A DNA stretch of 64,000 nucleotides from Dipteris shenzhenensis. Lineage: Eukaryota. Where the stretch lies: the NCBI GenBank assembly GCA_047967505.1, contig CM106538.1; one strand, 5' to 3'. Position numbers and translations under genes: made by a program. This document shows, piece by piece, positions 21,694-63,429 of this stretch; the first letter of the stretch is position 1; each line of letters opens with the position of its first letter. A model generated the notes under the pieces. That model saw nothing but the letters and a program-made list of their open reading frames with translations, ran no database searches and had not been told where the DNA came from.

Positions 21694-21717
21694 CACCTAT
21701 TTCATTAATTTTGGACT
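21694..21717 (+). mobile_element. Putative DNA-transposon terminus (24 bp), copy 1
   Basis: CACCTATTTCATTAATTTTGGACT, identical at 59441-59464; followed by subterminal repeats; 1.3 kb from the transposase 3' end. Confidence 0.55.
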
Positions 21718-21821
21718 TTTTGTGTTGTTTTTGGACGAAGCCCAAAAATCCTTCCCAAATGAAAAATTTACTTTGTGAAAATATCCTTCCCAAAATTAAA
21801 ATTTTACTCTTTGAAAATATT

Positions 21822-22175
21822 CTTCCCAAATCAAAAGTTCACTTTGTGGCACTATCATATTCACATAAAAATATTATTTTTTCAATCTATACTTTTGCAC
21901 CAACATGCAAGAAGTTGAAATAATCCTATATTAGAAATTCTAGCTATATCTAAGTTATTTGTTAATTTAATTATTTTTAATATTTTTCCTTGACATTTTT
22001 CCTTCCCAAATCAAAAGTTCACTTTGTGGCACTATCATATTCACATAAAAATATTGTTTTTTCAATCTATACTTTTGCACCAACATGCAAGAATTTGAAA
22101 TAGTCCTATATTAAAAATTCTAGCTATATCTAAGTTATTTGTTAATTTAATTATTTTTAATATTTTTCCTTGACG
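21822..22175. repeat. Tandem duplication, period 180 bp
   Basis: CTTCCCAAATCAAAAGTTCACTTTGTGGC... begins at 21822 and 22002. Confidence 0.88.
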
Positions 22176-22486
22176 TTTTTCGTTGACGTGATAAATTTAT
22201 AAATCCATGAAAGGAGACTTAAATATTTCATGAAAATAACATTGTCACTCGCAATATGCACAAAATTTTTAAAACTTTTAATAAATAGAAAAAAGACATG
22301 ATGCCATAAGACCCAAGTTTTGTATTGAACCAAAGACTCACCAAAGAGGTATAATAGCAATTATAGCTATTATTATATGATTACATTGAGAGACGTTGCT
22401 CTCAGCTAGAGTCTTTATATCCAAAATGATATAGATTGAACATATGTTTACAATTTAAATTGTTGCTCTTAAAGAGCCTCAATTCG

Positions 22487-22893
22487 TGCCATCTACATAA
22501 TTTGACTCCCCATTGTCTTATTGCTCAATGTCATGACAGTCCCTTGCCAGGTGCCATCTGCATAATTTGACTGCCACTTGTCTTGCCAAGCCTTGCCCCT
22601 TGGGTGCATTGACTCCCCATTGTCTTATTGCTCAATGCGATAGTCCCTTGCCAGGTGCCATCTGCATTAACTCCCTATTGTCTTGCCAAGCCTTGACCCT
22701 TGGGTGACATCCAGTGCAAAATATAGGTGCCATCTACATTAACTCCCACAAGTTATCTTGCCAAGCCTTGCCCCTTGGGTGCATTGACTCCCCATTGTCT
22801 TATTGCTCAATGTGATAGTCCCTTGCCAGGTGCCATCTGCATTAATTAACTCCCTATTGTCTTGGCAAGCCTTGACCCTTGGGTGACATCCAC
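22487..22893. repeat. Complex tandem repeat (short subunits, ~176-bp higher period)
   Basis: Recurring GGTGCCATCTGCAT, GACTCCCCATTGTCTTATTGCTCAATG and CTTGCCAAGCCTTG.CCCTTGGGTG blocks. Confidence 0.75.
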
Positions 22894-23013
22894 TGCATAT
22901 TTTGACTCTCATTTGACATAGGAGGTGATGACTCTGATTATAATTGTCTTGGATTGGCTCCTTGCCTAGAACCCAAATAAAATCCTTCAATGGACTTCAA
23001 TACAAAGCTTTAA

Positions 23014-26000
23014 TCATGGACATTCTTCATTTGCATTGTCTCCTTCTACTTCCTCCATGGCGAGCATCCTTAAACATTCGTGTATATGCAAAATAGTTTG
23101 CTGTGGTATTTTTATTTTTCCTTCTACCTCATATCCCATGCGCTTCTTTGATTTCTTTGCCCTTGAATGCCAAGACACTATGATTGTCTCCGTCGAAACT
23201 TGAGAGACCGCTTCATCATTTGGGACCCACTCCTTCATTATACAATTAGTATACAATGTGTTGTTATCCATATTCTCCTTGGTCATCTCTTTGCACATCA
23301 ACTACTTTTGCAACCCAAAACTTCACATTCTCATATTCATCATCCAATGGCCGAACCACAACAAAACAATCGACCTCTATATCTACTTGTGGCATAAACT
23401 CTCTCTTCTTCGGTCCACAATATGGACGTGGGAGTAATGATACAAATTCATTTTCAAAGACTGGAGCTGGGCGCAAATCGTTACGAACATTTGGCCAAAA
23501 CATATTGCATTCTTCCTTGACATCCTTTGAGCCTCACATTCTCTCAAGGTCCTTTATTAAATTTCGTGTCTTGTTAATTATAGTGGTAGTGTGTTCTCTC
23601 CAAGTAGGCTTCGAATCAGGATATCTCCGGAGCATTTCCTCTTTGTATGTAATAAATGCTTTTAATCCTTCTATTTCACAATTAGACCTCTCATTGGATT
23701 CTTGTATAGGAGCCCATGTTGGATACCTTTCCTTGCTGGGAATTGAAGTTAAGAGACTGTAAGGTTCTTCAGGTTCCCATTTTTATCATGAGAATACTGT
23801 TGCCATTGCATTACGGGTTTTTCATCTTTAAAAAAAAAACGAAAGTAGTGTGGATTGTTATAACCTGTCAATGCATCACCACCCGTTTGTATGAAAGGTA
23901 AAATGAAGCTCTTCCATTCATACATTCTTTCGAGCCTCTCACATAATGTACTTTCCTTACGACCACCAACTTGCCTGCCACATCTTCTTACCAAGTCATC
24001 TATTGTCTCCACATCCTTGCATTTAAGCTCCCTTGAGACTGTGCTAAAAACCTGATCGATATCCTCATGTGTATGCCCAATATACAAAAATCCACATTCG
24101 ACCTCATTGAAGATTCGATGAACAACTAGCATGGAGCAGAATGCAAACATGAGTACATTCTTATTTTCTCGCCAGCAATTATCAGCTTGTATTCTCAAAG
24201 TCGGTGGTAGGCGACCTTTTTCTGCATGTACATTGCGAATTGCCTTCATAATAGATGTTACAACTTGATTGCTATCATGTAGATGCAAGGAATCAATCCA
24301 TATATCTGCAAAGAACTTAATTCCATGCACTAACACTCCACATATATGTGTCTTTAGAAAGTGCTTTCCTTGTAATTTAGGTGGAGTGGCAACAAAACGA
24401 GGCAATGTTGTTGTATTCTGATCCATGCCATCTACAATAAGGCACATGTAGTCATCGGGATGCGAAATAGCTTGCTCCTTTCAAAATGCATATTTTTGTC
24501 TGGAATGTCGAATAAGGTCATGATGAGATTTTCGTTTTTTTTTGTGTAATTCCCTTTGATTTGGACATGTTGCACTCTCAATCGCTCGCTTTAAATCATC
24601 ACAGACATTGCACTTTGACATTTTTTGCCTCCTTGGGATTTTAACATATCCAAAGTTCTTCTTCCAAAGAGTATACAAAGTATGAGAAGAAGCTACGGCA
24701 TCCCCCCTTTGCCTTTGCTTTTCTGCAATAGAGTCAAATACTTCGAGCTTTGTCAAGCCCATTGGAAGGTGCATTTCAGTGATCGCGTCACCATTAGCGA
24801 GTTTGGTAGATATATGGGGTTGAGGTAAAGCATTTTCATGTATGAAGTCTTGCAAAATTGCTGCTGCCCTGGCAGTTGAGATTCTTGATTTGGACCTTCC
24901 TCTATTACCGTGAATGCTAAATTTGTTGCCACCCTTTGCCTTGGTGACTAAATCCCAATATGTACCATGGGATAATCCAGTAATATTGTGATATGCCTTA
25001 TTGCAAATCCTTTTTCCATTTACGAGAGGTTTTACCTTTTGTCTTGAACTTAGCCTTTTATTGCCATTCTGAAGAAAGCAAGAGAGACTTGTGAGAAGGT
25101 ATTCATTTCTTTCGCTTCCTCTTCTTTGCCACACATGTCCTCTACATTCCCTAATGTCTACAAGATCAATGAAGCGCGTACATCTTCGCTTGCAACATAG
25201 ATATCCCAATGCATTTAACATGTTCTCCTCCTTCATTACTCTCTTCCTCTTTCGTTGCTTTTGTGGATCTACCTGGATTCGCTTTCTCTTCATGCATATA
25301 TATGACCGTTTTCGTTCCTTGTGCATGTTGTTATCTGTATTTATGCACTTCTTCTCCTCACATTTGTTTGTAACCAAGCATCCATGATTGGCCGTTGCAT
25401 TCTTGTCCATATCACAATCAAAGTTAAATATTGAATAATCCTCTATTGATCTCATCCTCGTTTTTAACATACTCTTAGGACCATTCAATGAATTCAATAT
25501 TCTACAAGAGTATTGAGAACCTTGAAACTCTTCCACTCCTGAGAGAACATCGCTCATTGGGACATCTTGCATGGCTTTCACAAATCCACAAGCTTGATTG
25601 ACACCAGGTTTGTTAATATGCATGAACTCATCCACACTTGACAAGACATCGCTATTGAAACCTTTGCCCTTCTCACTGTGCAAGAATTCATCCACCCCAG
25701 ATAAGGCTTCACTTCTAAAATCATTTTGTTTCTCGGAACCAATGAACTCATCCACTCCATATAAGATGTCACTTCTATAATTGAGTATATCGAAATCATC
25801 CACATTTGAAGTGATAGAGCCTGGCACATGGGCATGCTTTTTAGGTCCTTTGATATTGTAGTATACCTTGTCTTTATCATTGAAAACCACGTGCCTCTTT
25901 CTCATGTTTAAAAATTGCATGCTCCATCTCATATTCTTGCCTACCTCATAGTAGGGATCACATAAGGATGTTATGTTATCAACCATACCATCATCAGTGA

Positions 26001-26462
26001 CTTTTAGAATCCTCATCTGTGCAAATGACCATTGCTCCACTTGTTCAAATCCCAATACTTCACCTTCTGCTACAGTCTTATTTGCAAATGACCTCATTTG
26101 TAAAATGTCCCCTATAGTAAAATCCAAGGTGGTGCACTTTGTATTCTTGATAATGTCTGTTGCATAAGTCTCATCTTTGTCCCACGCTATAAATGATTTG
26201 TTGGATGTATTGTAGGGCATAACATCTCCAAGTGTTTCCATATCTCCACATTTATACTTTAGCTCAACATGTGCGCTAAGAATCTTTGATACAGTAACTG
26301 CCACCTTATCTTCGCCAAGTCTTCGAAAGTGGCAAACTGAATTGGGATCACTATCATGGATTGTAGCAAATGCAACTATTTCTCTTTTGCTACATAAAAT
26401 CACATCCATCCCTGGAACAAAATCTATAGCCATCTCCTTTGTGAGAGTCCTTCGCAAGCAAG
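23014..26462 (-). pseudogene. Sola-like DDD transposase (~1150 aa) with N-terminal En/Spm Tnp1-like domains
   Basis: Catalytic motifs IVDGMDQ, IQADNCWRENKN and GHTHEDIDQVFS; Cys/His motif KCNVC..HH; the 658-aa and 232-aa ORFs are in one frame, separated by a TGA at 24481-24483; frameshift near 23780 and later stops; splice acceptor ..CTGCAG near 26463. Confidence 0.8.
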
Positions 26463-26554
26463 CTGCAGTAGCAACAATTACATAAATATTAGTCTCTTTT
26501 TAATAATCTACTCATTTATTATAATTTTTAATTAGTACTTAATTTATTGGTGGG

Positions 26555-29500
26555 AGAAGTTATCCGATCAAGTACTCATTAGATGGACATGCCAAGTTAT
26601 CCTTTGCATGGTCGATCGAGCATTAAATACTATTTTTGATCTAGTGTCATGCACATCCGTAAAAAAACACGAGCCTGCTAGGTATGTTATCCAATCAAGC
26701 ACTAATGGGATGCGTGTGCCACTTTGCATGTAAGCCAATTCTACCTAGTTGAAGGTGTGTGCAAAGTATTGTGCCCGTCGGATATGCTTTGCATTGTCAA
26801 TCAAGCATAAAACACTGTTTTTGCCTTAGTGTCATGCACAACCATGAAAAAACACGGTCCTAAGTGTGTTAATCAAACAAGTACTTATTGGATGGGGGCT
26901 CCACTTTTCACGCAAGTCCGCTTCAACTAGGTTGAGATGCGTGCAAAGTATTGTCACCATCGGATATGCTCTGCATGGTCGATTACACATTATACAACGT
27001 TCTTCCCGTAGTGATATGCACATCTGCAAAAAAACACGCCCTTAGGTATATTATGTAACCAAGTACTACTTATCGGATGGGTGTGCCTCTTTGACAAAAT
27101 TTCAATACCACCTAGGCTAAAGCGTAGGAAAAGTATTGTTCCCATCGGATATGCTTTGCATGGTCGATCGAGCATTAAATACTATTTTTGCTCGTGTCAT
27201 CCACATCCATTAAAAAAACACACTGCTAGGTGTGTGTGCAAATTATTGTGCCCATCGGATATGCTTTGCATTGTCGATCAAGCATAAAACAACGTTTTTG
27301 CCTTAGTGTCATGCACAACCATGAAAAAACACGGTCCTAAGTGTGTTAATCAAACAAGTACTTATCGGATGGGGGCTCCAATTTGCACGCAAGTCCGTTT
27401 CAACTAGGTTGAGATGCCTGCAAAGTATTGTCACCATCAGATATGATTTGCATGGTCGATCACACATTATATACCGTTTTTTCCCTAGTGGTATGCACAT
27501 CCATTAAAAAAAACGCCCTTACGTGTGTTATCTGACCAAGTACTTATCAGATGGGTGTGCCTCTTTGAGAACATTTCAATACCACCTAGGTTAAGGTGTA
27601 GGAAAAGTATTGTGCCCATCGGATATGCCTTCCATGGTCGATCGAGCATTAAATACCATTTTTGCCTTAGTGTCATGCACATCCGTAAAAAAACACGCTG
27701 CTAGGTGTGTTATCCGATCAAGTACTTATACGATGGGAATGTCACTTTGCATGTAAGTCAATTCCACCTGTTTGAAGGTGTGTGCAAAGTATTGTGCCCA
27801 TCGGATATGCTTTGCATTGTCGATCAAGCATAAAATACTGTTTTTGCCTTTGCGTCATGCACAACCATATAAAAACACGGCTGTAGCTGTGTTATTCAAA
27901 TAAGTACTTATCGGATGGGGGCTCCACTTTGCACGCAAGTCCGTTTCAACTATGTTGAGGTGCATGAAAAGTATTGTCACCATCGGATATGCTTTGCATG
28001 GTCGATCACGCATTATACACCATTTTTTCCCTAGTGATATGGACATCCACAAAAAAACACGCCATTAGGTGTGTTATCTGACCAAGTACTTATCAAATGG
28101 GTGTGCCTCATTGAGAACATCTCAATACCACCCGAGGTTGATGTGTATGAAAAGTTTTGTGCCCATCGGATATGATTTGCATGGTCAATCACGCATTATA
28201 CACCGTCTTTTCCCTAGTGGTATGCACATCCGAAAAAAACATGCCCTTAGGTATGTTATCTGACCAAGTACTTATCGGATGGGTGTGCATATTTGAGAAC
28301 ATTTCAATACCACCTAGGTTGAGGTGTACAAAAAGTATTTTGCCCATCGGTTATGCTTTGCATGGTCGATCGAGCACTAAATATTGTTTTTGCTCTAGTG
28401 TCATGCACATCCGTAAAAAAACATGCTTCTAGGTGTGTTATCCGATCAAGCACTTATGCGATGGGCGAGCCACTTTGCATGTAAATCAATTCCACCTAGT
28501 TGAAGGTGTGTGAAAAGTATTGTGCCCATCAGATATGCTTTGCATTGTCGATCAAGCATAAAACACCGTTTTTGCCTTAGTGTCATGCACAACCATATAA
28601 AACCACGGCCGTACGTGTGTTTTTCAACTAAGTACTTATCGGATGGGGGCTCCACTTTGCACGCAAGTCCGCTTCAACTATGTTGAGGCGCGTGCAAAGT
28701 ATTGCCACATCAGATATGCTTTACATGGTCGATCACACATTATACACCATTTTTTCCCTAGTGATATGGACATCCGCAAAAAAACACGCCATTAGGTGTG
28801 TTATCTGACCAAGGACTTATCGGATGGGTGTGCCTCATTGAGAAGATTTCAATACCACCTAGGTTGACGTGTACGAAAATTTTTGTGCCCATCGGATATC
28901 CTTTGCATGGTCGATCGAGCATTAATTACTATTTTTGCTCTAGTGTCATAAACATCCGTAAAAAAACACGCTGCTAGGTATGTTATCCGATCAAGCACTT
29001 ATGGGATGGGCGTGCCACTTTTCCTGTAAGTGAATTTTACCTAGTTAAAGGTGTGTCCAAAGTATTGTGCCCATCGGACATGCTTTGCATTGTCGATCAA
29101 GCATAAAACACCATTTTTGCCTTAGTGTCATGCACAACCATGAAAAAACGCAGTCCTAGGTGTGTTATTCAAACTAGTACTTATCAGATGGGGGCTCCAC
29201 TTTGCAGGAAAGTCCGTAACTATGTTGAAGGGTGTGCAAAGTATTGTCACCATCGGATATGCTTTGCATGGTGGATCACACATTTTACACCATTTTTTCC
29301 CTAGTAATATGCACATCCGCAAAAAAACACGCCCTTAGGTGTGTTATCTGACCAAGTACTTATCGGATGGGTGTGCCTCTTTGAGAACATTTCAATACCA
29401 CCTAGGTTGAGGTATACGAAAAGTATTGTACCCATCGAATATCCTTTGCATGGTCGATCGAGCATTAAATACTATTTTTGCTCTAGTGTCATGCACATCT

Positions 29501-32500
29501 GTAAAAAAATATGCTGCTAGGTATGTTATCCGATCAAGCACTTATGGGATCAGCGTGCCACTTTGCATTAAGTCGATTCCACCTAGTTGAAGGTGTGTAC
29601 AAAGTGTTGTGCCCATCGGATATGTTTTGCATTGTTGATCAAGCATAAAACACCGTTTTTGCCTTAGTGTCATGCACAACCATGAAAAAACACGGTCCTA
29701 GGTGTGTTATTCAAACTAGTACTTATCGGATGGGGGCTCCACTTTGCACGCAAGTCCGTTTCAACTACATTGAGGTGGGTGAAAAGTATTGCCACCATCG
29801 AATATGCTTTGCACGGTCGATCACGCATTATACACCATTTTTTCCCTAGTGATATGGACATCCACAAAAAAACACGCCATTAGGTGTGTTATCTGACCAA
29901 GTACTTATCGGATGGGTGTGCCTCTTTGAGAAAATTTCAATACCACCTAGGTTGTGGTGTACGAAACATGTTGTGCCCATCGGATATCCTTTGCATGGTC
30001 GATCAAGCATTAAATACTATTTTTGCTCTAGTGTCATGCACATCCGTAAAAAAACACGCTGCTAGGTATGTTATCCAATCAAGCACTTATGGGATGGGCA
30101 TGCCACTTTGCATGTAAGTCAATTCCATCTAGTTGAAGTTGTGTGCAAAGTATTGTGCCCATTGGATATGCTTTGCATTGTCGATCAAGCATAAAACACC
30201 GTTTTTGCCTTAGTGTCATGCATAACCATGAAAAAACACGGTCCTAGGTGTGTTATTCAAACAAGTACTTATTGGATGGGGACTCCACTTTGCACGCAAG
30301 TCTGTTTCAACTACGTTGAGGTGCGTGCAAAGTATTGTCACCATCGGATATGCTTTGCATGGTCGATCACGCATTATACACCATTTTATCTCGAGTGATA
30401 TGCACATCCGTAAAAAAACACGCCCTTAGGTGTGTTATCTGACCAAGTACTTATCGGATGGGTGTGCCTCTTTGAGAACATTTCAATACCACCTAGGTTG
30501 AGGCGTACCAAAAGGTTTGTGCCCATCGGATATCCTTTGCATGGTCGATCGAGCATTAAATACTATTTTTGCTCTAGTGTCATGCACATCCGTAAAAAAA
30601 CACGCTGCTAGGTATGTTATCCGATCAAGCACTTATGGGATGGGCGTGCCACTTTGCATGTAAGTCGATTCCACCTAGTTGAAGGTGTGTGCGGTGTATT
30701 GTGCCCACCAGATATGGTTTGCATTGTCGATCAAGCATAAAACACCGTTTTTTGCCTTAGTGTCATGCACAACCATGAAAAAACACGGTCCTAGGTGTGT
30801 TATTCAAACAAGTACTTATCGAATGGGGGCTCCACTTTGTATGCAAGTCCATTTAAACTAATTTGAGGTGTGTGAAAAGTATTGTCACCATCAGATATGA
30901 TTTGCATGGTCGATCACGCATTATACACCGTTTTTTCCATAGTGGTATGCACATCCACAAAAAAACACACCCTTAGGTATGTTATCTGACCAAGTACTTA
31001 TCGGATGGGTGTGCCTCTTTGAGAACATTTCAATACCACCTAGTTTGAGGTATAGGAAAAGTATTGTGCCCATCGGATATGCTTTGCATGGTCGATTGAC
31101 CATTAAATACCATTTTTGCCTTAGTGTCATGCACATCCGTAAAAAAACACGCTGCTAGGTGTGTTATCCGATCAAGCACTTATGCGATGGGAATGCCACT
31201 TTGCATGTAAGTCAATTTCACCTAGTTGAAGGTGTGTGAAAAGTATCGTGCCCATCAGATATGCTTTGCATTGTCGATCAAGCATAAAATACCGTTTTTG
31301 CCTTAGTTTCATGCACAACCATGAAAAAACACGGTCCTAAGTGTGTTTATTAAACAAGTACTTATCGGATGGGGGCTCCACTTTGCACACAAGTCCGTTT
31401 CAACTAGGTTGAGGTGTGAGCAAGGTATTTTCACCCATGGATATGCTTTGCATGGTCGATCACGCATTGTACACCATTTTTTCCCTAGTGATATGGACAT
31501 CCGGAAAAAAACACGCCCTTAAGTGTGTTATCTGACCAAGTACTTATCGGATGGGTCTGAATCTTTGAGAACATTTCAATACCACATAGGTCGAGGCGTA
31601 CGAAAAGTTTTGTGCCCATCAGATATCCTTTGCATGGTCCATCGAGCATTAAATACTATTTTTATAGATGGGCATGCCACTTTGCATGTAAGTCGATTCC
31701 ATCTAGTTGAAGTTGTGTGCAAAGTATTATGCCCATTGGATATGCTTTGCATTGTCGATCAAGCATAAAACACCGTTTTTGCCTTAGTGTCATGCATAAC
31801 CATGAAAAAACACGGTCCTAGGTGTGTTATTCAAACAAGTACTTATTGGATGGGGGCTCCACTTTGCACGCAAGTCTGTTTCAACTATGTTGAGGTGCGT
31901 GCAAAGTATTGTCACCATCAGATATGCTTTGCATGGTCGATCACGCATTATACACCATTTTTTCTCGAGTGATATGCACATCCGTAAAAAAACACGCCCT
32001 TAGGTGTGTTATCTGACCAAGTACTTATCGGATGGGTGTGCCTCTTTGAGAACATTTCAATACCACCTAGGTTGAGGTGTACAAAAAGTTTTGTGCCCAT
32101 CGGATATCCTTCGCATGGTCGATCGAGCATTAAATACTATTTTTGCTCTAGTGTCATGCACATCTGTAAAAAAACACGCTGCTAGGTATGTTATCCGATC
32201 AAGCACTTATGGGATGGGCGTGCCACTTTGCATGTAAGTCGATTCCACCTAGTTGAAGGTGTGTGCAAAGTATTATGCCCATCAGATATGCTTTGCATTG
32301 TCGATCAAGCATAAAACACTGTTTTTGCCTTGATGTCATGCACAACCATGAAAAAACACGGTCCTAGGTGTGTTATTCAAACAAGTACTTATCGGATGGG
32401 GGATCCACTTTTCACGCAAGTCCGTTTCAACTACGTTGAGGTGTGTGCAAAGTATTGTCACCATCGGATATGATTTGCATGGTTGATCACGCATTATACA

Positions 32501-42343: not shown

Positions 42344-42347
42344 CCGT

Positions 42348-47493: not shown

Positions 47494-47875
47494 TTGTGCC
47501 CATCGGATATGCTTTACATAGTAGATTGAGTATTAAATACCATTTTTGGCCTTGGTGTCATGTACAACGGTCAAAAAACACGATCGTAGGTGTCATTTTC
47601 AAACATGTACTTATTGGATGGGGATGCCACTTTGCACACAAGTCAATACTGCCTAGGTTGAGGAACGTGCAAAGTCTTGTGTCCATTGGATATGCTTTGC
47701 ATAGTCGATCTCACATGATACACCATTTTGTTCCTAGTGTTATGCACAATCGTCATAAAATACGTTTGGAGGTGTGTTATCCGAACAAGTACTTATGGGA
47801 TGGGTGCACCACTTTGTATGCAAGTCAATAAGACCTAGGTTGAGGCGTGTACAAAGTTTTGTGCCCATCGGAGAA
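47494..47875. repeat. Distal diverged satellite monomers
   Basis: Satellite resumes in register after the TSD (TTGTGCCCATCGGATATG); about 2 monomers. Confidence 0.9.
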
Positions 47876-50845: not shown

Positions 50846-51519
50846 GATTTGACTTACTATCACGAGCAAGAGCGACAAATAAGATTTGACTTACGAGAAG
50901 AATGAAAAAGACTTACGAGAAGAAAGTATCGAGAAGAATGTTGAAGAAAGTATCAAGAAGAATGTTGAACACAAATTTGAATTCAAAAGGAATGTACGAG
51001 AAGAAAGTATGAGAAGAATGTTGAACACAAATTTGAATTCAAATTTATAATGAATTCAAATTTCCCTCTCTTTTTTGAAAATTCAAATTTATGCGTAGGA
51101 GGAGTGGGCTAGTTTTTCTCATATATACTTTTCTTTCCATTCATTCATTCTAATTCTCTCCTCATTTCATTGAAGCAACCAAGAGCGGAAGAGAAAGGAT
51201 AAGCGGAGCCTTACTTTTTTCACTTTTTCCAGGTACTTGCATTCTTTTTCATTCGTCTTGTAATTATTTTTCTTTACTTACAATTCTTTTTCAATTAGTT
51301 TCTTGTTAAAGTTTTTGAGTTCTATTTCTTAAAATTCGTCTTGTAATTCTTTTTCTTTACTTACAATTCTTTTTCAATTAGTTTATTGTTAAAGTTTTTG
51401 AGGAGGGGGGTCTTTTAGAAGGCATTAAAATTCTTTTTAAATTAGTTTCTTATTTGAGTTTTTGAGTTCTATTTTAATTAGTTTTTTATTTATATTTGAG
51501 TTTGTAAATTTGAGAAATG

Positions 51520-52205
51520 AGAGAATAGGGAGGGAGAGAAAGAGAGAGGAGAGAGGAGAGAGGGAAAGAGAGAAATTAAGAGAGAGAAGAGGGGCTCTTA
51601 GTGGCTGTGGCCGCCAAGAGAGAGGGAGAGAGGGAGAGAGAGAGAGAGATTCACAGAGAGAAGAGGGGCTCCTTAAATGAGAGAGAAGAGTAGGGAGGGA
51701 AAGAAAGAGAGAGGAGAGAGGGGGAGAGAGATTAAGAGAGAGAAGAGGGTCTCCTGAGGGCTATGGCTACTTGAGGGAGGGAGAGAGTAGGGAGAGAGAG
51801 GGAGAGAGAGAGAAAGAGAGAGAAAGAGAGACAGAGGGAAAGAGAAAGAGGGAGAGAGAGAGAAAGAGAGAGAGGGAGAGAGAGGGATTAAATTAGTTTC
51901 TTATTTGAGTTTTTGAGGGGGCTGTGGCTGTTTGAGGGAGGGAGAGAGTAGGGAGAGAGAGGGAGAGAGAGAGAAAGAGAGAGAGGGAGAGAGAGAAAGA
52001 GAGAGAGAGAGGGAAAGAGAGAGAGGGAGGGAGAGAGAAAGAGAGAGAGGGAGAGAGAGGGAGAGAGAGAGATGTTTATCAAAATGAAATGTGGCGAGAG
52101 GAGAGAGGGAAAGAGAGAAATTAAGAGAGAGAAGAGGGGCTCTTCGGGGCCATGGCCACCAAAGGGAGAGAGAGAATGGCAGCAATGAGAGAGAAAGAGA
52201 GACTC
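51520..52205 (+). repeat. (GA)n-rich low-complexity tract
   Basis: GAGAGAGG/GAGAAA repeats with GTGGC/GGCC interruptions. Confidence 0.85.
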
Positions 52206-52215
52206 AAAGACCTTT

Positions 52216-54160
52216 GTGATGCCTCCTCCTCAACCATCAAAGTTTCCAGAGCTGCAAAGTGCATTGGAGACTCTTTCATATACTTGGGAGCAATTTCCTA
52301 GTGTGGTGGCAAAAAGGATGCATGCAAAGATAATGTTTGAGTACTTTCAGGATGCAGAATATGCTCCTCATATTCAAGGATCTTCACATGAAGGAGATAA
52401 AAAAGCTCAGACTTCGATGCAGGGACAAGAAGAACAGGCACACTATCATAAACGTGTAGAACATGAGCGCAAACTTCTAGACCAAGAAATGGTGGATGTA
52501 ACTAAGGATGATGAAAAACAAGCCTTGAGTGCATGGGAATTAAAAAAAATTGAAGAAGATCAAGGTCGATCCACTGTAGTTATGTTGGAAGCTCTTGCTA
52601 GCAAACCACGATGTGAAATGCAAAAGGCTAGTACTGCAAGAGCCACGGTTCCAAGTGGTAAAAAAAGACATCGTCCCACTGTAGATAGAGATAATGTGGA
52701 TGAAAAACGGTTAAAAGAAGAGAAAGATGAAGAAGACTCAGAACCCGAGGCTGAAGATGATCAGGATGAACTCACATCAATCAAAAATCTTAATCTACGT
52801 CTTAATGAAGCAGTTATAGATGATGATGTGGGATATATCTGGGGTCAAAGGACGTGGTTTGTGAACGCCAAAGATGTGGAAGCTGCAGCTCTCTTTACTA
52901 ATAGCCGAAGCCTTGATATATCCTATGCAATGCAAATATACGAGGCTTTGAGAGATGGTAAGAAACCTGTGGCAAGCAATGTGGTCTTGCGCCCAATAAT
53001 GTTTTGTCCAACCAAAAATAGTTTTTTCTAGATCAAATAACATTTACAGGGCCTACACATTTCGAGGAAACCTTCAGTCGATTCTTTAAAGACACTCTTA
53101 AAAATATTCCACATGAACAAGGCGAAGAGGCACAAGGTGAGAATATGCTAAAGGAAGTAAATAAGGAATTCCTCCTTCATTGCAGATTCCAGCCCATTGA
53201 TGGTCAACATTGGGCTTATGCTTGTAATCAGATCGCAAGGGAAGCAAAGGAGGGAAAAAGACTCACTCTAGAACAATTTGCAAAGATAAGTTCATTCCAT
53301 TACTATCCTGCAACAATCTGTATATTCAAGCATGAGATCAAGTATTTGATTGAGTGCGAAAGACTTAATCATTATGTCCATGGAAAGCGTAAGATATCCT
53401 CAACATCAGAGGTCTTACAGAAGGCAAGTGTTATATGGACAACATTTGGTTCTCCAAATCCTGATTTGAAGCGAAAGGTCACAAAAGCAGACGCCGACAC
53501 ACTCACGAACTTCTATACTTCTTTGAGTGCAGTTGTGCCTAGGGGAACTCAAGAGCGAGAAGAAAGTATGACAAGCCTCAAGGTAGTGAGGGACAGATAT
53601 GCCGACTACACTTCTATCATATTTCATCTTGTTGAAGTGTTCAATGAGATGCTTGAAACGTGCATTGCTTGTGAGCGTGGACAGTTGACCTATGAAGCTC
53701 CTTTGTTTATCTCCGGCAAGTCAAAGGTAATGGATAAGAAGGAGTTGACGGCAAGGATGTGGAGGCCTATAAAGTACTTACCTGGTAAGTATGCATCCAT
53801 GGCAGCACAAAAAAGTTTAAAGAAAGAATGGTTTTTTGGAAGAAAAGACAAAGACCACTGCATGGAAGAATGCATCAATGTACAGGTGAGGCGTGATGCA
53901 GTGCATAGTGCCATTAAGTATTTGTTGTCAGAGAAACAAATTCCACTTACTCATTGTAACATTGACTATAATGTGGTGAAGCATATAGCTTCTTTGTCAA
54001 CACCCAAGGTAAAGCTATGGGCAAACAGGTGGATTAAAAAGGATGAAGATGGGTCAGAATAGTAACCTCTTATATGAGAAAAGAAATCCCACAACAAGTG
54101 GTTGCATATGTGGAAATATTAATCAGCGAGATAAGGATGCCGACAGATATGCACCAAAGC
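52216..54160 (+). pseudogene. ParB/Srx-like (DGQH motif) protein gene, frameshifted and 3'-truncated
   Basis: SRSLDISYAMQIYEALRDG..VVLRP and FQPIDGQHWAYAC; the two ORFs join by a frameshift at the T-run ~53022-53027; truncated by Copia C at 54161. Confidence 0.55.
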
Positions 54161-56157
54161 GTTCGGGACATGAAATACATTAGACAAGTATTTATTTTTC
54201 CCATCCTGCATAGACAAAGGAATTTTGCCAATCTGCACAATAGGATGTGCAGTATCATCACCAGTCTCCACAAATCCTGGTTTTTCCATTTTCCTTGCAT
54301 CCTGCATCCATTCAGCATGACCTGTCATGTGGTTTGATGCACCTGAGTCAACATACCACACATCATTGCTTTCTTCTGCACTTGTCACAGAATTTGTCAT
54401 ATGCTGTACCATAAACAAATGCTCATTTCTGTCATCACCCTGTCTACTAGAGGATGCATAATTGCCTTGCTGCAATTTTCCATTCATAATGTCATTCTCC
54501 TTTTTGTAGCAGTCTTTAGCCATATGTCCCATTTTACCACAGTAGTAGCATTCAACATTGCTGTTTGCATTTTGGCCTCTCTGCCATCCACCACAACCTC
54601 TTTGGCTCCCCCTGCCTCTAGAGTTACCACGTCCTCCTGCATAGGACTAGTTTTCTTGAGTTTGCTGCATATTCTGATTTCTACCACAGCATCTAGATCG
54701 GCCTCCTCTACCTCTGCCTCTACCCCTTCTAGCATTTGAGTAGAAGACAGTTTCTTTTGAAGTTCCTCCTGAAGAAGATGCACCACTATTTCTCTGCTCT
54801 TCAAAAATTAGAAGAGCAATCAACTCCTCAAAATCAGGAAATTTTTCATGGATGGCAATGGATGTTCGGAACTGTGCATAATCCTTTCCTAGACCATTCA
54901 AGGTTACAGAAACTAAATCGTCATCATCCACTGGCGACCCAATGGAAGCAAGTGCATCCGTAATTTTCTTCACCTTCATGTGGTAGTCATTGATGCTCAT
55001 ATTTTCTCTCTGCACATTGTGCAGCTCCTGCTTGAGCTGCATTTTCCTGGCCTACGTATTTGTGCTGTACATTTTAGCCAAAGTATCCCATGCCACCTTT
55101 GGCATACTTGCATCCTGAATATGCACAATCATTGAATCTGAAATACTGATAGACAGCCAGTACATAACTTTTCTGGCTCTCTCATGCCATCCTTTAAATG
55201 CCTACATTTCCTGTTGATTGGGAACATTTGGAAGAACTGGTTCTTCTTCATTTCCTGTAATGAGCTCCGAGTAGCCTTTTCCCATAAGGAAATTTGTCAT
55301 TCTAAACTTCCATGCTTGGAAGTTGTTCTTGTCAAGCTTTTCAGTGACAATCTGTGAAAGAGAATCAGACACCATTACAGAACACTGCAAAATATTCTGT
55401 CATTGTAAAAAACACAGCTTCTGCCTCACAAGGGCAAATCTGCAAACCTGACGAAAGTGGTTTTTGACCACATAGTCACTTCCTAGTGACGATTTTGCAT
55501 CAACAGGCAATAAGGATGATTCTGCAACTCCCAATATCTCTACGCACAGGCATACGATGCAATTTCTACAGCAACTTTTCACCGACCGAGGGCTTCGCCC
55601 TCTCTCGCAGCATATAATGCACTCTCGCCACACCGCGAAGGGTGTCTCAATCTGAGACAGTGCACTCTTGCACTTCCGGCTATGCTACCTGTAGAGATTT
55701 GCTCCCAAACTCGAAAAAGGAAAGCAACACTGGTCCTCTTACCAGGACACTGCGAACTTGGTTTGCTTTCTTGAGCTCCTTACCACGAACAAGGCTTTGA
55801 TACCATGTGAAGATAGTGGGAGAGAGGGAAGGAGTCTCACTTGAGGCTTTGTCACAAGCACAATGGGGGAATACACACAAAGGTGGAGGCTGAAAACAGT
55901 TTTTCTCTTCTTAGTTGTGAAAGCCAAAAGAACTCTAGTACAAAGAAATAGAAGAACCCTATATGTGGGTCTCAAACCAAACTCAACTAACTAAGGTGGC
56001 ATACTGACTGAGCCACGAACTAGTGTAGATAAGGATAGCTGTCATCCAGCTATTATTCGTGGGTGGTGTACCAACCGCATCTGTAGCTAACAAGTCGGTG
56101 ACATAAATGCACAACGGTCACCCTGGCATATCACGAGTGGAGCTCAATATCTCAATA
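54161..56157 (-). mobile_element. Truncated Copia element C (same family as A): 5' LTR, PBS, gag, protease
   Basis: LTR 55806-56157; PBS ends at 55805; gag and WYVDSGASNHM match A. Confidence 0.95.
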
Positions 56158-57290
56158 GCATGAGGCCTTTGATATGAAAGATTTGGGACTTGTAGGTCAT
56201 ATTCTTGGTATGCGCATCGCGCGTGATCGGAGTAGGAAACTCCTTTGGCTTTCACAAAAAGAGTATGTTACAAAAGTATTGCAACGTTTCAATATGGAGG
56301 GCGGGAAGGCAGTGAGTACTCCATTGCCTCCATATGTGAAACTGAGTCATACAGATAGTCCCGAATCAGATGAGGAAAGGGCCATGATGGCCAAGGTTCC
56401 TTGTGCATCAGTAGTTGGGAGTCTTATGTATGCTATGATAGCTACTATACTAGACATTGCATTTGCAGTGGGAGTTGTTAGCCGGTATATGGCTAATCCA
56501 GGAAAGAGGCATTGGGAGGTAGTTAAGTGCATCATGAGGTACATGAAGGGTACCAAGGAGATGTGCATCTGCTTTGGTAGAGGAGGCATGCGTGTACTTG
56601 GGTACATAGATTCAGACTATGTAGGGCATGTGGATAGTAGGAGATCCACTTCTAGTTATGTGCTCACCTTTGCAGATGGTGCAGTGTCATGGATGTCTCG
56701 CGCACAGAAGTGCATTGCTTTGTGTACCACAGAGGCTGAGTATGTTGCAGCCACAAAGGGTTGCAAGGAGGCTATATGGCTTGATCGGCTAGTGGGAGAT
56801 TTGGGGATTCATACAGGTGTACCGACATTGCATAGTGATTCCATGAGTGCTATTCAGCTAGCACGGAATCCGGTCTTTCATGCAAAGACCAAACACATTG
56901 AGGTCAGGTACCATTTCATCAGGGAGGTACTTGAGGACAAGCACATAGAGCTTGTTAAGGTTCACACAGATGATAACCCTGTAGATATGCTGACGAAGAG
57001 TCTACCTAGTCAGCAGTTTGAGTATTGTCGTGTATTGATGGGCATTGGATAGTATGCTCACTAGTTGTTCTCCCTTAAAGGCACATTTTCCTTTAAGTGG
57101 GAGGTTGTGGGGGTTAAAGGTCACTGTGCCTTTACCTTGGTTATGTACAATACTCAAAACACATATATAAATGAATGAAAAAAGAAGATTAGGGTGGTTC
57201 TACACCCACCAAAACTTGTGTGGCTCTCTGTCTCTCTCTCTCCCTCTTCCGTTCTTGCTTCCGTTGAGAGCACTCTCATCTTCTTCAATA
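56158..57290 (+). mobile_element. 3' remnant of a different Copia (Tnt1/Tork-like RT-RNase H, PPT, short LTR)
   Basis: ORF 56174-57052 MKDLG..ILGMRIARDR..LWLSQ..KTKHIEVRYHFIRE; PPT AAGTGGGAGG 57095-57104; TG at 57106; LTR end approximate. Confidence 0.85.
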
Positions 57291-58297
57291 AAGTCGGGTA
57301 ATTCTTGATCGTCATTGTATTCCTCACCATCTCGATCTCCATCTTCCTCCTGTATGATGTCATTTATATGTGCATCTCCCTCTTGGCCCATATTGTGATC
57401 TTCATCTTCTTCACTAGATCCATGTGGATCAATTGGATCCAGCATTGGTAGTGGCATCTCCATATCTACATCTCTATCTTAAAAACTTTGTTTACTTCGT
57501 TGTGCAACTTGGATCACGTCCGACCATCTTGGATCAGAATGATCCAAATGAAAAACCACTTATAGTGAAGATGGGTGTCAAATGCCATCAATTATATGAA
57601 TTTATGTTTAAGTACATGTACCAAATTGATCTTTAAAAATGAAATGTTCGATTAATTAAATGATTAGTATGCACCTACTCACAATGCTTGGGAAGAACAA
57701 AAGTATCACTTTCATCGGTTCAAAGTTTGGAGTCTATTGCAACTTTGAATCAATGCGTTCCATGCAAAAATGTTGTCTATATGACCATAATGCACTGTAC
57801 TTTTTGTATTGCAAAAGGGCATCATTAAAACAATGAGGATGCATCTATTTTATATTGTATATTGCCACAAATAATTACTTAATTACGTCAAGAGGTAAGA
57901 AACTTACATGCATTATACATCTAGATGATAACTCTCCTAGATGATAACTCTCGCTCATGCTCATTTATTGCCTCTCCATTGCATTTAGCTTTACATAGAG
58001 CCAGTTGTAGCAAATCAACTGACATGCGAGTGGGGAGAAGGGCGAGATCCTGTGGATATGGTTGCGCTCGCGTGTGCATTACTCTGAATGGTGTCCAACC
58101 ATGAGCATAGAGGCAAGCTCTCATAATCAAACACTGGAAATGCTTGCAGGTCAAGATCATGCCGAGCAGTAGCAAGCCTCATAGCAACAAGGCACGATGA
58201 CAAATAAACTTATTGTTGTTACTAAAGTGGAAGGTGATGAGGTTGTGGATGACAAAGTGCATGCCCAAGGTGATATTTTTGGAGCGGCATTGTGCAC

Positions 58298-59100
58298 TGA
58301 AGAAAGGGCCAACAAATCCCATCAAGAATATAGATTAGCTTGGACTCATAAATAGAATCTTGAGTGATTGTGCATTTCTTCTCTTATACTTAACAATACA
58401 TGATAGGCCTCTTATATAAGGAGTGCCCTTTGAATAGTCAACCATGTGGGATCCTCTCATCCACATCTCTCCTTGTGGATATCCTCAATCCACATCTCCA
58501 CATCTTGTAGTCCACATCCTAGGGTGGCTACTTTAATTCTTTCCTATACCATACCTTAGCCCTTTAATCTATGTGCTCATGGCACTATATCTCTCAACAC
58601 CTCTCCTTGGTGCCATGACCCTTTGGCTACTGCAAGGTGGTTAGATGTGAGTTACATTCCATCACCTCCCCTTAGTGCATGCATTGCTACTTAAGATGGT
58701 CAAGTGTGGCTTTTACATGTCAATACCTCCCCTGGGTGCTTTCATAGCTACAGTCAGGTGGTCAAGCTTGATTTACAAAATATAGGCAAGGTTGGCAAGG
58801 TATTTGTTTCTCAATACATTCCATTGATGTCACCTTTTGGCTCATGGCTTGATGATGATGCTATGCAGTTGACTTGCTAGTTCTTCAATATGCAATCTTC
58901 TTCCTTGTGTATCTTCATGCATGATGCTTTGTTCTTCCATGTGCCTTGATGCTTTATGTGTGGATGCCATGCTTCATGCTATGGTCATCTCATGCACTTG
59001 TGCTTTTGTTATGCTTATGACAATGATGTGTGCATTCATGCTTTGATTTGTCATTTGTTGCAAAGGTCTTACCAATTGATTTCTTTCAATATTGGCAATG
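58298..59100 (-). mobile_element. LTR retroelement 3' remnant (LTR ~58298-58599 plus PPT-proximal region)
   Basis: Minus strand AGGAGAGG|TGTTGAGAG at 58599-58607; TATA-like CTTATATAAG; extra PPT-like copies; boundaries uncertain. Confidence 0.5.
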
Positions 59101-59440
59101 TCTAATTGCTAACAATGATTTTGATCTAATAAGCACGTAGATCTAAAAAAGAAGATCACTTTTCCTTTTTGGAGCATGTCCAAATTCATCATGGATTGCA
59201 AGTTACGCCTTGTCAAAGTTTTTGTGAAGAAGAGGGCATTTGATGATGTGGCACAGGGATTCACATGCTGAATTCCATACTGTGCTTAGTAGGGGCTATG
59301 TGCTTAGGTGGGACTGTGGTGATGTGGCACTTTTAACCAACCCCATAACCTTACCATGGCTATGTTTAGCCTTACTAGAGTCAGGTCTTATCTGCCATGT
59401 GGCAAAACTTTGACCACACTGCCTAACTAATCGAACCTAA

Positions 59441-59464
59441 CACCTATTTCATTAATTTTGGACT
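59441..59464 (+). mobile_element. Putative DNA-transposon terminus (24 bp), copy 2
   Basis: Identical to 21694-21717; precedes a region with an Ulp1-like gene and a transposase fragment. Confidence 0.55.
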
Positions 59465-59941
59465 AGTGCACTATCCAAATTCATTTTGTGAGATAATTTT
59501 GGATAAAGCATTTCAAAAAAAGAGGCTCTTATAAAACAAAACTTTGAGTCAAAAAGTAAGATTTTAAAAAAGCAAATTAGAAAAAATGACGTGACATGTT
59601 ATTAAAACTAGAGTACATTAAAAAAAGAGGACTTCATGTTGTTAAAAGAGACAAAAAGTAAGATTTTAAAAAATCAAATTAGAAAAAAAACCAGAGTACA
59701 TTTAAAAAACTAGAGTACATTTAAAAAAAAGCATGACACATTTGTACAAGAAGTAGATCATATAACTCAAAGCCATATGGTGTTAAAAAACACCTTCCAT
59801 TAGCTCAGCCTAGAAGATGTCATCTTTGTCTTTCTTGTCTACTATAGTTACTTTAGAAAACACATAAATCTATGGAATTAAATTTCACAGTTACTTTAAA
59901 TTTCTATGGAATTAAATTTCCATCACTTGACTATTAAGTCA

Positions 59942-60398
59942 TTAGAGAGAGCATATGTCCTCGAAAGTGCCTACTATGGCATTGGCTTCATGAAAACAAG
60001 TAGACTTTAAACTTGCAGGCCATGCGTAACCAGGGCTGGCATCACAAATCTCCTCACAGACTCTCCTCACAACTTGTTTCGAATCTTCCGTCGACTTGTA
60101 AGCATTCAACAACTCTTCTTTTCTCTCTTGGCTTTCCTCATCTTCACCATTTTTTTCAATACAGCTTCTAGCCACCCCCATATCCTGTACGAAAATTTAA
60201 CTCGTTCGCATAAGAAGTATGTGATTAAAAGAAGCGAAAAAGAAAGCTAAGGATATTCACCTCTTCTGCTAAGTTCAAATCAAGCAGCCATGTGCATAAC
60301 ATATCCTCCTCGAATGATTTTCCCTTCATTGGTCCATACAAAAAAGATCTAAGATAGAATTTGAGTTCAGTAAATGAAGTCAGGTAGTAACTAGTCAT
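59942..60398 (-). CDS. Small two-exon hypothetical protein (~126 aa)
   Basis: Exon 60398-60261 and exon 60184-59942 join in frame (..LAEE|DMGV..) across a 76-nt GT..AG intron. Confidence 0.55.
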
Positions 60399-61180
60399 TG
60401 TCTTAGAGGGAAAGTGGGAGAAGTAGAGTGAGGGAGCAATAGTGAGGGATGCACAGTGAGCTGCCCCTCCTTCAAGGGTGATATAAAGTGAGGGAAGACG
60501 TAAAGTGAAAGATGAATACAAGTTAATCAGAAGGACTAGGATGTAAGAAATAAGAGAGTGTTTGTGGAAGGACTACGATGGAAGATTACAAGTGCACTAA
60601 GGCACGATGTGTTCGCTATGATAAGGATAAGGGTTGGAATAAAGTGAGAGAAGCATTGGAAATGCTCTACTTTAAGTGAGTGGAGACTGTCCAATTGAAT
60701 AAAATTTTGCAGAGCATTGGGAATGCTGTACTTTAAGTGAGTGGAGCATTGGGAATTGATACTTTGCCATGAAATATATTACAAATATTGCATCATCACA
60801 TATTCATATCAAAATTCTCATCACAAAAGGTTATATTTCCTAATAATCACATCATCACACATTCATATCATAAAATTGTGTGCATGAAATAAATATATAA
60901 ATATCATGACTAAATGCCACTTAAGTAATAAGTCAGAAATTGGTGTATAATCAATAAAAACTACATCATGATTCATACATTGCAACAAATAAATGTCAAC
61001 CATAATATTCATGGAGTAAACAACATCATGAGAATATGCTCCTCATGCATATATACAAACACAACATCATACATGCATCACAACTCTTTTGATGCTTTCA
61101 ATGGAGGCTGTGGTGCTCTAGATGTATACTCTTCTTCTGTAGTATGTAGTGCTTTTAGAGTAGACTCACTATCCTCTTCC

Positions 61181-62044
61181 TTAAATGCAACCGGAGGCTG
61201 TGGCAACTCTTCTGATGCTTCCAGTGGAGGCTGTGGTGCTGTAGGTGTACACTAAGTCTTCCTTTGTAGTGTGCAGTGCTTTCACAGTAGACTCAGTCTC
61301 CTCTTCCTTAAATGCAAGCTCTGATATTGCTTCATTTGCACGTTGTATTCTAATGGCAGCAATTAGGTCTCGAATGATTTCAGCCCTAAACAATTGTATA
61401 TCCTCCTCTGAATATTTGAGCTCCAAAGAGTCTTCTGATGAGATCTGTGGCTTAAGTGAGAAAATTTCTTTGAAAATCAACATGCAGTTGTAGGCAACTC
61501 TCCACCCACAACTATGCCCATCTTCCTGCTCTACTACTAAATGCTTTTGGAAGTCTACCAAGTCTTTGTACTGTCTTGTTTCTCTGATAGCAGATACCAA
61601 CTTCTCAATCGACCTGCTCATCATGACATATTAAAAAAACTTAGTGTGTCTATTACATAAGGTACATAATATAGAAGTAACAACAGATTATAGAATACTT
61701 ACATTTGCATGAGCCATGAAAGCCTGCAATCGAGTTAACAAACCAACAATAGTTGTATTCAAGGTCCCAAACCACTAGACTCCAATGTTCCCTACACGAA
61801 TAATTAAGAACCATTATTATTTAACACAATGTTGCTAGTATAAGATGAAAATAAAGGTTGCCATGATACTTACATCTCGTGATATGCCATAAATAGGACT
61901 CACACGCCATGTAAATGTAAAGGCTGTAACCATTTACAAACATCGGCTATTGTCTTTCTGCTATCGCTAAGTATAGGAGAAAGGAGGGAATCCAACATAT
62001 ACACACGGTTTTATACGGCTGTACCAAATCGTGAGATAACTATA
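61181..62044 (-). pseudogene. Ulp1/C48-like cysteine protease gene (three exons, 5'-truncated)
   Basis: Exons ~62044-61874, 61791-61703 and ~61629-61181 give VLFMAYHEM|EHWSLVVWD..FVNS..EQEDGHSCGWRV; GTAAGT donors; internal stops; last acceptor damaged. Confidence 0.75.
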
Positions 62045-62074
62045 CTGCACCAACAAATAAATGAATATTAGCTT

Positions 62075-62507
62075 AAAGAGACTAATATTTATGTAATTGT
62101 TGCTACTATAGCTTGCTTGCGAAGGACTCTCACAAAGGAGATGGCTATAGATTTTGTTCCAGGGATGGATGTGATTTTATGTAGCAAAAGAGAAGTAGTT
62201 GCATTTGCTACAATCCATGATAGTGATCCCAATTCAGTTTGCCACTTTCGAAGACTTGGCGAAGATAAGGTGGCAGTTACTGTATCAAAGATTCTTAGTG
62301 CACATGTTGAGCTAAAGTATAAATGTGGAGATATGGAAACACTTGGAGATGTTATGCCCTACAATACATCCAACAAATCATTTATAGCATGGGACAAAGA
62401 TGAGACTTATGCACTAGACATTATCAAGAATACAAAGTGCACCACCTTGGATTTTACTATAGGGGACATTTCACAAATGAGATCATTTGCAAATAAGAAT
62501 GTAGCAG
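62075..62507 (+). pseudogene. Inverted copy of the transposase first large exon (N-terminal part)
   Basis: Reverse complement of ~26067-26499; near-identical peptide RRTLTKEMAIDFVPG..RSFANK. Confidence 0.92.
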
Positions 62508-63429
62508 TTTTTCAAACAAGTACTTATCAAATGGGGATGCCACTTTGCACACAAGTTAATACTGCCTAGGTTGAGGAATGTGCAAAGTCTTGTGTCCATT
62601 GGATATGCTTTGCATAGTCAATCTCACATTATACACCATTTTGTTCCTAGTGTTATGCACAATCATCATAAAATACGTTTGGAGGTGTGTTATCCGAACA
62701 AGTACTTATGGGATGGGTGCACCACTTTGTATGCAAGTCAATACAACCTAGCTTGAGGCATGTACAAAGTTTTGTGCCCATCGGAGAAATGTAGATGCGA
62801 TAATATTAGAAAATTCTCGGTATGTGTATATGTGTGTGTGTGTGGCAAACAATTTTGATACAACAAAGTAAACACCTAGTGCACAAATTATGCACTTCAT
62901 ACCTTCAGTAAATAAGCTTGTTGATGAGGATAAATACACCCTTGAATAAAATCACAGTTGTTGTATGACCACTATAGGATCGCTTTGACACCTGTGATTT
63001 TGCCCACATGTAAGTTTGCAAATAGTATAAAAAATCATATAATAATATATTAATAGTTTGCAAATGTGTATAGCAAGTGAGTAATGGGAAGTGGAAGTGG
63101 GAGTGAGGAGCGAGGAGTGGAATGGGAGAGGGAAGTAATAGTAGTGTATGATAATAAGTATAAAAAATAGTATAATAATATATTAATAGTTTTCAGATGG
63201 CAAGTGAGTAATGGGAAGTGGAAGTGAGAGTGGGGAGGGAAGAATGGAATGGGAGAGGGGAAGGTAATAGGGGAGTAGGATAATAAGGGAGTGAAATGAG
63301 TGAGGGGAGTTAATAGGGGATGAAAAAGAGGAGGGTGAGATGGGGAAATATGGGATTTTAGGAAAGGGGAGGAGTATGGGACGTGGTGGAAATGTGGGAT
63401 GGGAGTGGTGGCAATGGGGGAGGAAGAAG
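62508..63429 (+). repeat. Direct copy of the satellite edge and flanking DNA (47596-48451)
   Basis: Same diverged monomers, GGAGAAATGTAGATGCGATAATATTAG junction and GA-rich flank; ~60 bp of extra sequence near 62840-62900. Confidence 0.92.

Follow-up and report, generated by a model that had tools for sequence, protein, structure and literature searches.

A decayed DUF7869 transposase gene beside a 182-bp satellite array in Dipteris shenzhenensis, and a second segment opening with the same 26-bp sequence

A 64,000-nucleotide stretch of the Dipteris shenzhenensis genome (GenBank assembly GCA_047967505.1, contig CM106538.1; hereafter the window, meaning the whole stretch at its full length) was analysed following a sequence-only reading, which had proposed a single large transposon carrying several genes and its own satellite between positions 21694 and 63429. 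Two parts of the window open with an identical 26-bp sequence. The first (segment 1, from 21692) contains a decayed transposase gene of the DUF7869 family, an array of 182-bp satellite monomers and, further to the right, purine-rich modules and an open reading frame (ORF) with a DGQH motif. The second (segment 2, from 59439) contains a Ulp1-like fragment and short copies of pieces of segment 1. The surrounding chromatin, that of a plant-like genome, is rich in repeats and bears satellite. A transposon can be assigned with confidence only over approximately 21.7-26.5 kb, an interval in which the 26-bp end is followed by approximately 1.3 kb of subterminal repeats and by the transposase gene on the minus strand.

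The transposase gene and the 26-bp terminus-like sequence

The features of this interval, together with the second copy of the 26-bp sequence, are as follows.

21692-21717, plus strand: 26-bp terminus-like sequence, copy 1, an exact repeat of copy 2
21744-22181, plus strand: subterminal tandem repeats, a 36-bp unit present three to four times and a 180-bp unit present twice (Tandem Repeats Finder, TRF; repeat search)
22502-22900, plus strand: second tandem block with units of 100-175 bp, between the terminus and the transposase 3' end (TRF, repeat search)
23038-26433, minus strand: DUF7869 (PF25273) DDD/E transposase pseudogene (Pfam, translation, tblastn)
59439-59464, plus strand: 26-bp terminus-like sequence, copy 2, an exact repeat of copy 1

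The transposase matched PF25273 with 180.2 bits (cut-off 26; E 4.2e-53) over profile positions 3-191 of 192. Homologues at E<=1e-3 numbered 81 among 6023 candidates, and PF25273 was present in 80 of the 81. The closest homologues share just 38-40% identity and are unnamed; those that are named come from sea urchins, bivalves, amphioxus, a coral, a nemertean and a dinoflagellate. The 12 sequences aligned all share residues D17, D20, D100, E105, H136, H138, E139, D140 and D142, numbered as in the window fragment, and the DDD/E core is recognisable because the acidic residues invariant in this alignment are retained. The gene is dead: its frame is interrupted by a TGA at 24481-24483 and shifts at least three times, near 23775, 23535 and 23300. 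The DDD transposase of the sequence-only reading is thus supported by its Pfam family and core residues; it lies on the minus strand and is no longer intact. Homologues of approximately 1060 aa align piecewise over 25374-23038 (tblastn), and the first approximately 350 codons, which align to no homologue, are lineage-specific. The N-terminus weakly resembles the plant TNP1/En/Spm domain (PF03017, E 0.19, below cut-off). The N-terminal part (26067-26433, minus strand; copy at 62141-62507) is the sole duplicated portion of the gene.

DUF7869 is probably Sola-type, judging from the host range of Sola elements; Pfam, PHROGs, NCBIfam and PADLOC contain no Sola profile, and the term DUF7869 was not found in the literature searched. 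Two oyster DUF7869 transposases (P0039 and P0045) bear an N-terminal OTU cysteine-protease domain (PF02338, E 5.6e-9 in P0039), and proteases of ubiquitin-like proteins therefore recur with this family.

The repeat that opens the two segments had been described as 24 bp long. This 24-mer occurred exactly twice in the window, at 21694 and 59441, both on the plus strand, and two or more matches were obtained in 0 of 100 shuffles. The two sites are therefore as reported, but the length is not, as exact identity extends to 26 bp (21692-21717 and 59439-59464). The left flanks of the two copies, ending in TCAA at copy 1 and CTAA at copy 2, proved mutually unrelated on sequence comparison, and the two segments are also mutually unrelated immediately to the right of the 26-mer. 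Tandem repeats are found to the right of the 26-mer in both segments. Tandem subterminal repeats are the usual transposase-binding architecture, and no clusters of the subterminal motifs beyond chance were detected elsewhere in the window. With tandem subterminal repeats following both copies and unrelated sequence on their left, the shared 26-mer looks like a transposon end.

The bounding of an element by inverted pairs of the 24-mer was not borne out within the window. At up to three mismatches an inverted terminus was not found anywhere in the 64 kb, and the copy 1 end has no inverted partner in the 42 kb to its right. The inverted terminal 14-mer gave one match at 11 or more of 14 bases, located inside the satellite, compared with three to nine in 10 shuffles. 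With no inverted partner in the window, no boundary pair or target-site duplication (TSD) is demonstrable; the partner end may lie outside the 64 kb. Inverted repeats flanking the transposase gene amounted to 53 weak pairs, none convincing. Two candidate right ends, 26546-26552 (6 of 7 terminal bases) and 60936-60945 (9 of 10 terminal bases), had unmatched flanks, fell within chance and were rejected. Derivation of the terminus from the satellite monomer was likewise rejected, the observed local alignment score being reached by 42 to 262 of 300 shuffles. A comparison of the first 20 bases of the terminus with metagenome contigs returned eight loci, all chance matches with unrelated flanks, none of which reached the 24-mer.

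The 26-mer is tied to the transposase solely by a proximity of 1.3 kb, and it could instead be the end of a different, non-DUF7869 family, for example one carrying a Ulp1-like gene, with the DUF7869 gene merely adjoining. Ulp1 domains are known cargo of plant Mutator-like elements (excerpt of PMC13317346). Such an origin is nevertheless highly improbable: no insertion boundary is visible from 21717 to the transposase 3' end, an interval made up of tandem repeats, and a Pfam search found a Mutator or CACTA transposase in neither segment.

Satellite array, flank and DGQH open reading frame

To the right of the transposase gene, segment 1 continues with the following features.

26559-37110, plus strand: main part of the 182-bp satellite array (TRF period 182, monomer search)
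37110-47493, no single strand: two Ty1/copia elements, tail-to-tail, with long terminal repeats (LTRs) of approximately 350 bp (self-comparison, ORFs, RVT_2 E 8.7e-70)
47493-47925, plus strand: last approximately 2.4 satellite units (TRF, monomer search)
47926-48451, plus strand: flank with a 127-bp repeat present twice, 96.8% identical to 62902-63429 of segment 2
48452-52188, plus strand: purine/G-rich low-complexity modules (GC up to 0.63, GC skew 0.7)
52219-54062, plus strand: DGQH ORF with LRPI ... IDGQH motifs, a single reading frame interrupted within a T6 run at 53022-53027
54161-57100, no single strand: Copia fragments after the DGQH ORF, with gag and an LTR on the minus strand and reverse transcriptase/RNase H on the plus strand

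The order of modules in segment 1 agreed with the sequence-only reading, running from the terminus through subterminal repeats, transposase, satellite, flank and G-rich modules to the DGQH ORF. The satellite array begins at approximately 26559, about 130 bp upstream of the transposase ATG, and totals approximately 11 kb in segment 1, interrupted by the Copia pair. Monomer matches numbered 64, all on the plus strand, with 60 in 26598-37065, two in 47493-47857 and two in 62507-62770. No likeness of the 182-bp monomer to other sequence in the window, element ends included, was found. The 10.4-kb Copia pair is inserted within the satellite, the monomer phase resuming at 47493, and carries an RVT_2 reverse transcriptase, gag and integrase ORFs and terminal repeats of approximately 350 bp. 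The pair forms a near-palindrome with arms of approximately 5 kb at 94-97% identity, a single central LTR (42348-42699) and an extra 5'-truncated LTR (47180-47493). Such a structure is unusual and suggests that elements recombined with one another instead of simply nesting.

Two stretches, 3600-5300 and 48500-52200, contain purine-rich 'GAGTGAGG/GGGAAGG' modules, with a mutual likeness of only 60-76% in low-complexity sequence. Modules of this kind thus also occur away from the transposase.

The DGQH ORF spans two open frames, 52189-53031 and 53022-54062. Its relatives P0085 and P0087 keep 'LRPI', which stands at the end of the first frame, and 'EP(V/I)DGQH', which stands in the second, and the two frames are one gene, frameshifted in the T6 run. 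A GT..AG intron joining the frames was considered and rejected, since it would remove 'LRPI', which is conserved in homologues. HMMER searches over 1.84 billion representative proteins recovered seven relatives at E<=1e-3, with a Pfam family in none of the seven; two of them are long (589 and 1097 aa) and have both the LRPI and the DGQH motif. The ORF matched no Pfam family and no relevant NCBIfam family at E<=10, a word-indexed search for homologues at near lengths returned none, and nothing was found in a PDB sequence search.

The gene had earlier been described as ParB-like. The nearest Atlas clusters were 'DGQHR domain-containing protein' at 0.92, with low recognition. The AlphaFold models were poor (predicted local distance difference test, pLDDT, 47 and 56), and from these low-pLDDT models weak fold matches to KorB (Z 3.6), PadC (Z 3.1) and sulfiredoxin (Z 2.9) stood amid many unrelated rows. 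Foldseek gave ParB/Spo0J, Srx and GmrSD rows only at E 1.6-2.8. No match to a ParB, DndB or DGQHR profile was found, and the ParB-like description may be kept as a lead. Among the 17 differences listed between the ORF and contigs from public sequencing runs, six were synonymous and 11 were not, which gives no sign of constraint.

Segment 2, run contigs and remaining features of the window

The content of segment 2 to the right of the copy 2 terminus, and of the sequence that interrupts it, is as follows.

59546-59751, plus strand: segment 2 tandem subterminal repeats, unrelated in sequence to those of segment 1
61181-62067, minus strand: Ulp1-like fragment, consisting of a Cys-motif ORF (61181-61630) and an upstream piece (61903-62067), cut at 62056
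62056-62507, plus strand: inverted copy of 26067-26520 (transposase 5' flank and first 122 codons), 96.3% identical over 454 bp
62491-63429, plus strand: copy of 47576-48451 (last 1.8 satellite units and flank), 0.94 kb (sequence comparison)
63430-64000, plus strand: sequence interrupting the segment 2 flank, beginning CACTA, with palindromic 24-26-bp repeats at 63526-63618

Self-comparison of the window yielded 817 high-scoring segment pairs, of which 364 reached 200 bp or more; setting aside intra-satellite pairs left 158. A sensitive comparison of 57000-64000 against 1-57000, with subjects inside the 26600-37100 array dropped, gave nine rows. Homology of segment 2 to the rest of the window comprised three blocks only, namely the 26-mer, the transposase 5' piece and the satellite end with its flank; 59465-62055 had no match to segment 1.

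The transposase 5' piece differs from its source at 8 of 367 coding bases (three synonymous, four not). It is inverted relative to segment 1 and therefore reads into the satellite, not away from it. The copy of the satellite end and flank consists of blocks 95.8% and 96.8% identical to 47576-48451, with a 63-bp insertion. At the join, 62507, both source sequences carry the 4-bp GTAG, the signature of a microhomology-mediated join made in repair or rearrangement and not of a second intact copy. With both copied pieces 96-98% identical to segment 1, a single event would fit.

The order in segment 2 was as previously described (terminus, small ORFs, Ulp1-like sequence, transposase piece, satellite edge, flank), and the end, transposase piece, satellite and flank stand in collinear order in both segments. 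The reported twofold co-occurrence of transposase, satellite and flank consequently holds for order, but the transposase of segment 2 is only an inverted 454-bp fragment. Two genes had been proposed for this segment. The small spliced gene is supported by open frames only, with no Pfam family at E<=0.1, and the Ulp1-like gene lacks Pfam support, contains an in-frame stop and is severed at 62056.

The Ulp1-like sequence retains a Cys motif and an Asp-like motif with a stop between them; the in-frame stop lies in the upstream piece (61903-62067), and the sequence ends at the 62056 breakpoint. A His-Trp motif is expected in Ulp1/Peptidase C48, and at its position the frame has Cys-Trp; the catalytic His-Asp-Cys are not in one frame. 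Searches against PF02902 and Pfam gave no match at E<=10 (61400-61630 and 61903-62067) or at E<=0.1 (61184-61630), and neither a homologue among longer proteins nor a match in PDB sequences was found for it. An Atlas feature search placed Peptidase_C48 clusters first at 0.95, a lead only. The name 'Ulp1-like' thus reasonably describes a pseudogene that has been truncated, but no cargo gene that is intact.

An alternative is that segment 2 is no second transposon copy and that 62056-63429 is a local rearranged duplication, produced by inversion and deletion as a satellite-rich region was replicated or repaired, which came by chance to lie near the 26-bp end of some other element, short or unrelated. 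Both pieces lie only 36 kb from their sources at equal divergence, they are joined by microhomology, and nothing beyond 26 bp is common to the sequences next to the two ends. This explanation needs the coincidence that the duplicate came to lie 2.6 kb to the right of a 26-mer, matching segment 1 in both side and order, which by rough estimate has a chance of a few per cent; moreover, tandem repeats after both 26-mers are typical of the ends of one family. A local duplication is considered unlikely.

Contigs from public sequencing runs were also compared with the window. The best two DNA runs contained 0.28 and 0.25 of the sampled words, no run reached half, and no RNA run was among those listed. 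The X1 and X2 contigs derive from other samples, are 96-98% like the window and cover 30 of the 30 bins of 52100-64000; the results given here are those among the matches listed. One X2 contig (52197-52533) has a loose end at 52217, 2 bp before the DGQH ATG, where it differs from the GA-rich module, and past 54164, where the window has Copia fragments, X1 and X2 contigs both continue differently. Another X2 contig (61655-62075) diverges from the window past the junction of the Ulp1-like and transposase fragments, and an X1 contig (62191-62507) departs at the switch to satellite, as an uninterrupted transposase copy would do. A further X1 contig (62625-63419) continues with letters matching segment 1 after 48451. 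No loose end at 59439 was present among the matches listed. Among these matches the contigs diverge where the window changes, so that the segment 2 junctions were not seen and the DGQH and Ulp1-like sequences stand in different surroundings. Both are linked to the transposase by position only.

Segment 2 is interrupted at 63430 by what is likely the end of another, CACTA-type transposon running off the window, judging from its first bases and palindromic repeats. Elsewhere in the window, a 454-aa Ser/Arg-rich open frame (13963-15327, minus strand) contains a 54-bp tandem repeat (14195-14339) and has no Pfam match above cut-off; it may be a host gene or low-complexity sequence. A Ty3/gypsy chromovirus integrase fragment lies at 1790-2380 (SH3_Tf2-1, E 1.9e-20; Chromo, E 0.004, below the Pfam cut-off). 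Rfam and tRNA scans of the window returned nothing.

Interpretation and comparison with known systems

The reading favoured here, with moderate confidence, is that a dead DUF7869/Sola-type transposon lies at the edge of the satellite array and that segment 2 is a chimeric, non-autonomous relative formed by template-switching repair. The array would have grown or pre-existed at the transposon edge and would later have been invaded by Copia elements. Segment 2 would share the 26-bp end while having its own subterminal repeats, its interior being a patchwork of 2.6 kb of unrelated sequence with the Ulp1-like pseudogene, the inverted 454-bp piece and 1.8 satellite units with their flank. The transposase 5' piece and the satellite with its flank may have been copied from a segment 1-like template in apparently one repair event, and such a structure would be consistent with abortive gap repair or template switching, the joins being made through microhomology. 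The satellite, G-rich modules and DGQH ORF would accordingly be neighbours rather than proven cargo.

Several points weigh against this reading. The end, transposase piece, satellite and flank have the same order and orientation in both segments, which is unlikely for an unrelated local duplication and expected for a family with an internal satellite. The homology between the segments runs to 48451/63429, where it is halted by another element, and the window ends soon after, so that a far right end beyond the flank is possible. The right end of a short version of the element was not found in the window, and the run contigs may represent other species or other copies.

The shared collinearity is also the best argument for a giant Sola-type family, larger than 20 kb without the nested Copia elements, which carries the satellite, the purine-rich modules and the DGQH gene and of which segment 2 would be a deleted, Ulp1-bearing derivative. 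The unrelated left flanks of the 26-mers are as separate insertions would give, and a cysteine protease travels with the family in the form of the OTU domain fused to DUF7869 in the oyster protein P0039. The six synonymous and 11 nonsynonymous differences in the DGQH ORF are near-neutral, like those of decaying mobile-element genes. Sola elements of more than 15 kb are on record (excerpt of PMC10741241). Set against these points are the absence of an inverted end partner from 42 kb rightward, the inverted and microhomology-joined transposase piece of segment 2, and the truncated, stop-bearing Ulp1-like piece without Pfam support. Furthermore, a DGQH contig from another sample has different upstream sequence, and the satellite is unlike the element's ends. 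We regard a giant family of this kind as unlikely. Of the single large multi-gene element originally proposed, the collinear order is upheld, but two ends enclosing all modules were not found in the window.

If the short element with a chimeric relative is the true account, the locus holds an ordinary dead DNA transposon and debris in satellite-rich chromatin. Its main use is then as an annotated DUF7869/Sola-type element from a plant-like genome, a setting in which elements of this type are reportedly rare (excerpt of PMC10741241). It is decidedly unlikely that a Sola-type (DUF7869) composite of more than 25 kb has moved the satellite, the purine modules and the rare DGQH (possibly ParB/Srx-like) gene as a unit and has spawned a protease-bearing deletion derivative. 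If true, it would show directly a DNA transposon that carries a satellite array, spreads it and seeds arrays at new loci, and it would bear on the colonisation of new chromosomal sites by satellites. Every ingredient is already known, and the combination would therefore be new only if the composite were shown to move as a unit. The DGQH ORF is a member of a very small family.

Among known systems, the Starships of fungi and Teratorn of medaka are giant cargo transposons with defined ends, target sites and repeated whole copies. The likeness to the present locus is in idea only, that of a mobile element which spans tens of kb and brings accessory genes along; unlike in those systems, two TSD-flanked ends enclosing all modules were not found in the window. 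Closer is the comparison with Sola elements. The window element shares with them a DDD-type transposase and an end-like sequence followed by subterminal repeats, and named relatives of its transposase occur in sea urchins, bivalves and amphioxus, which are Sola-rich taxa. It differs in that just one end is in the window and the N-terminal approximately 350 aa of the transposase match no homologue, and the link between DUF7869 and Sola is a tentative one. Sola elements measure 2-9 kb, some exceeding 15 kb, with terminal inverted repeats of 11-1124 bp and 4-bp TSDs, and are present in the moss Physcomitrella patens and rare in flowering plants (excerpt of PMC10741241, summarising Bao et al. 2009).

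Plant Mutator-like elements (Kaonashi/KI-MULEs and Vandal) carry Ulp1 domains (excerpt of PMC13317346), and here too a SUMO-protease-like sequence lies inside an apparent DNA transposon derivative. The neighbouring transposase at this locus is DUF7869, in contrast, and the protease-like sequence, a truncated pseudogene, matches no Pfam family. The Tetris foldback transposon supplied building blocks of a Drosophila virilis satellite (excerpt of PMC4079207). The Tetris satellite arose, according to that excerpt, from the element's own internal repeats, whereas no part of the element described here is like the 182-bp monomer. The two cases are alike in that a tandem array directly abuts a DNA transposon and a second copy bears a short version of the array.

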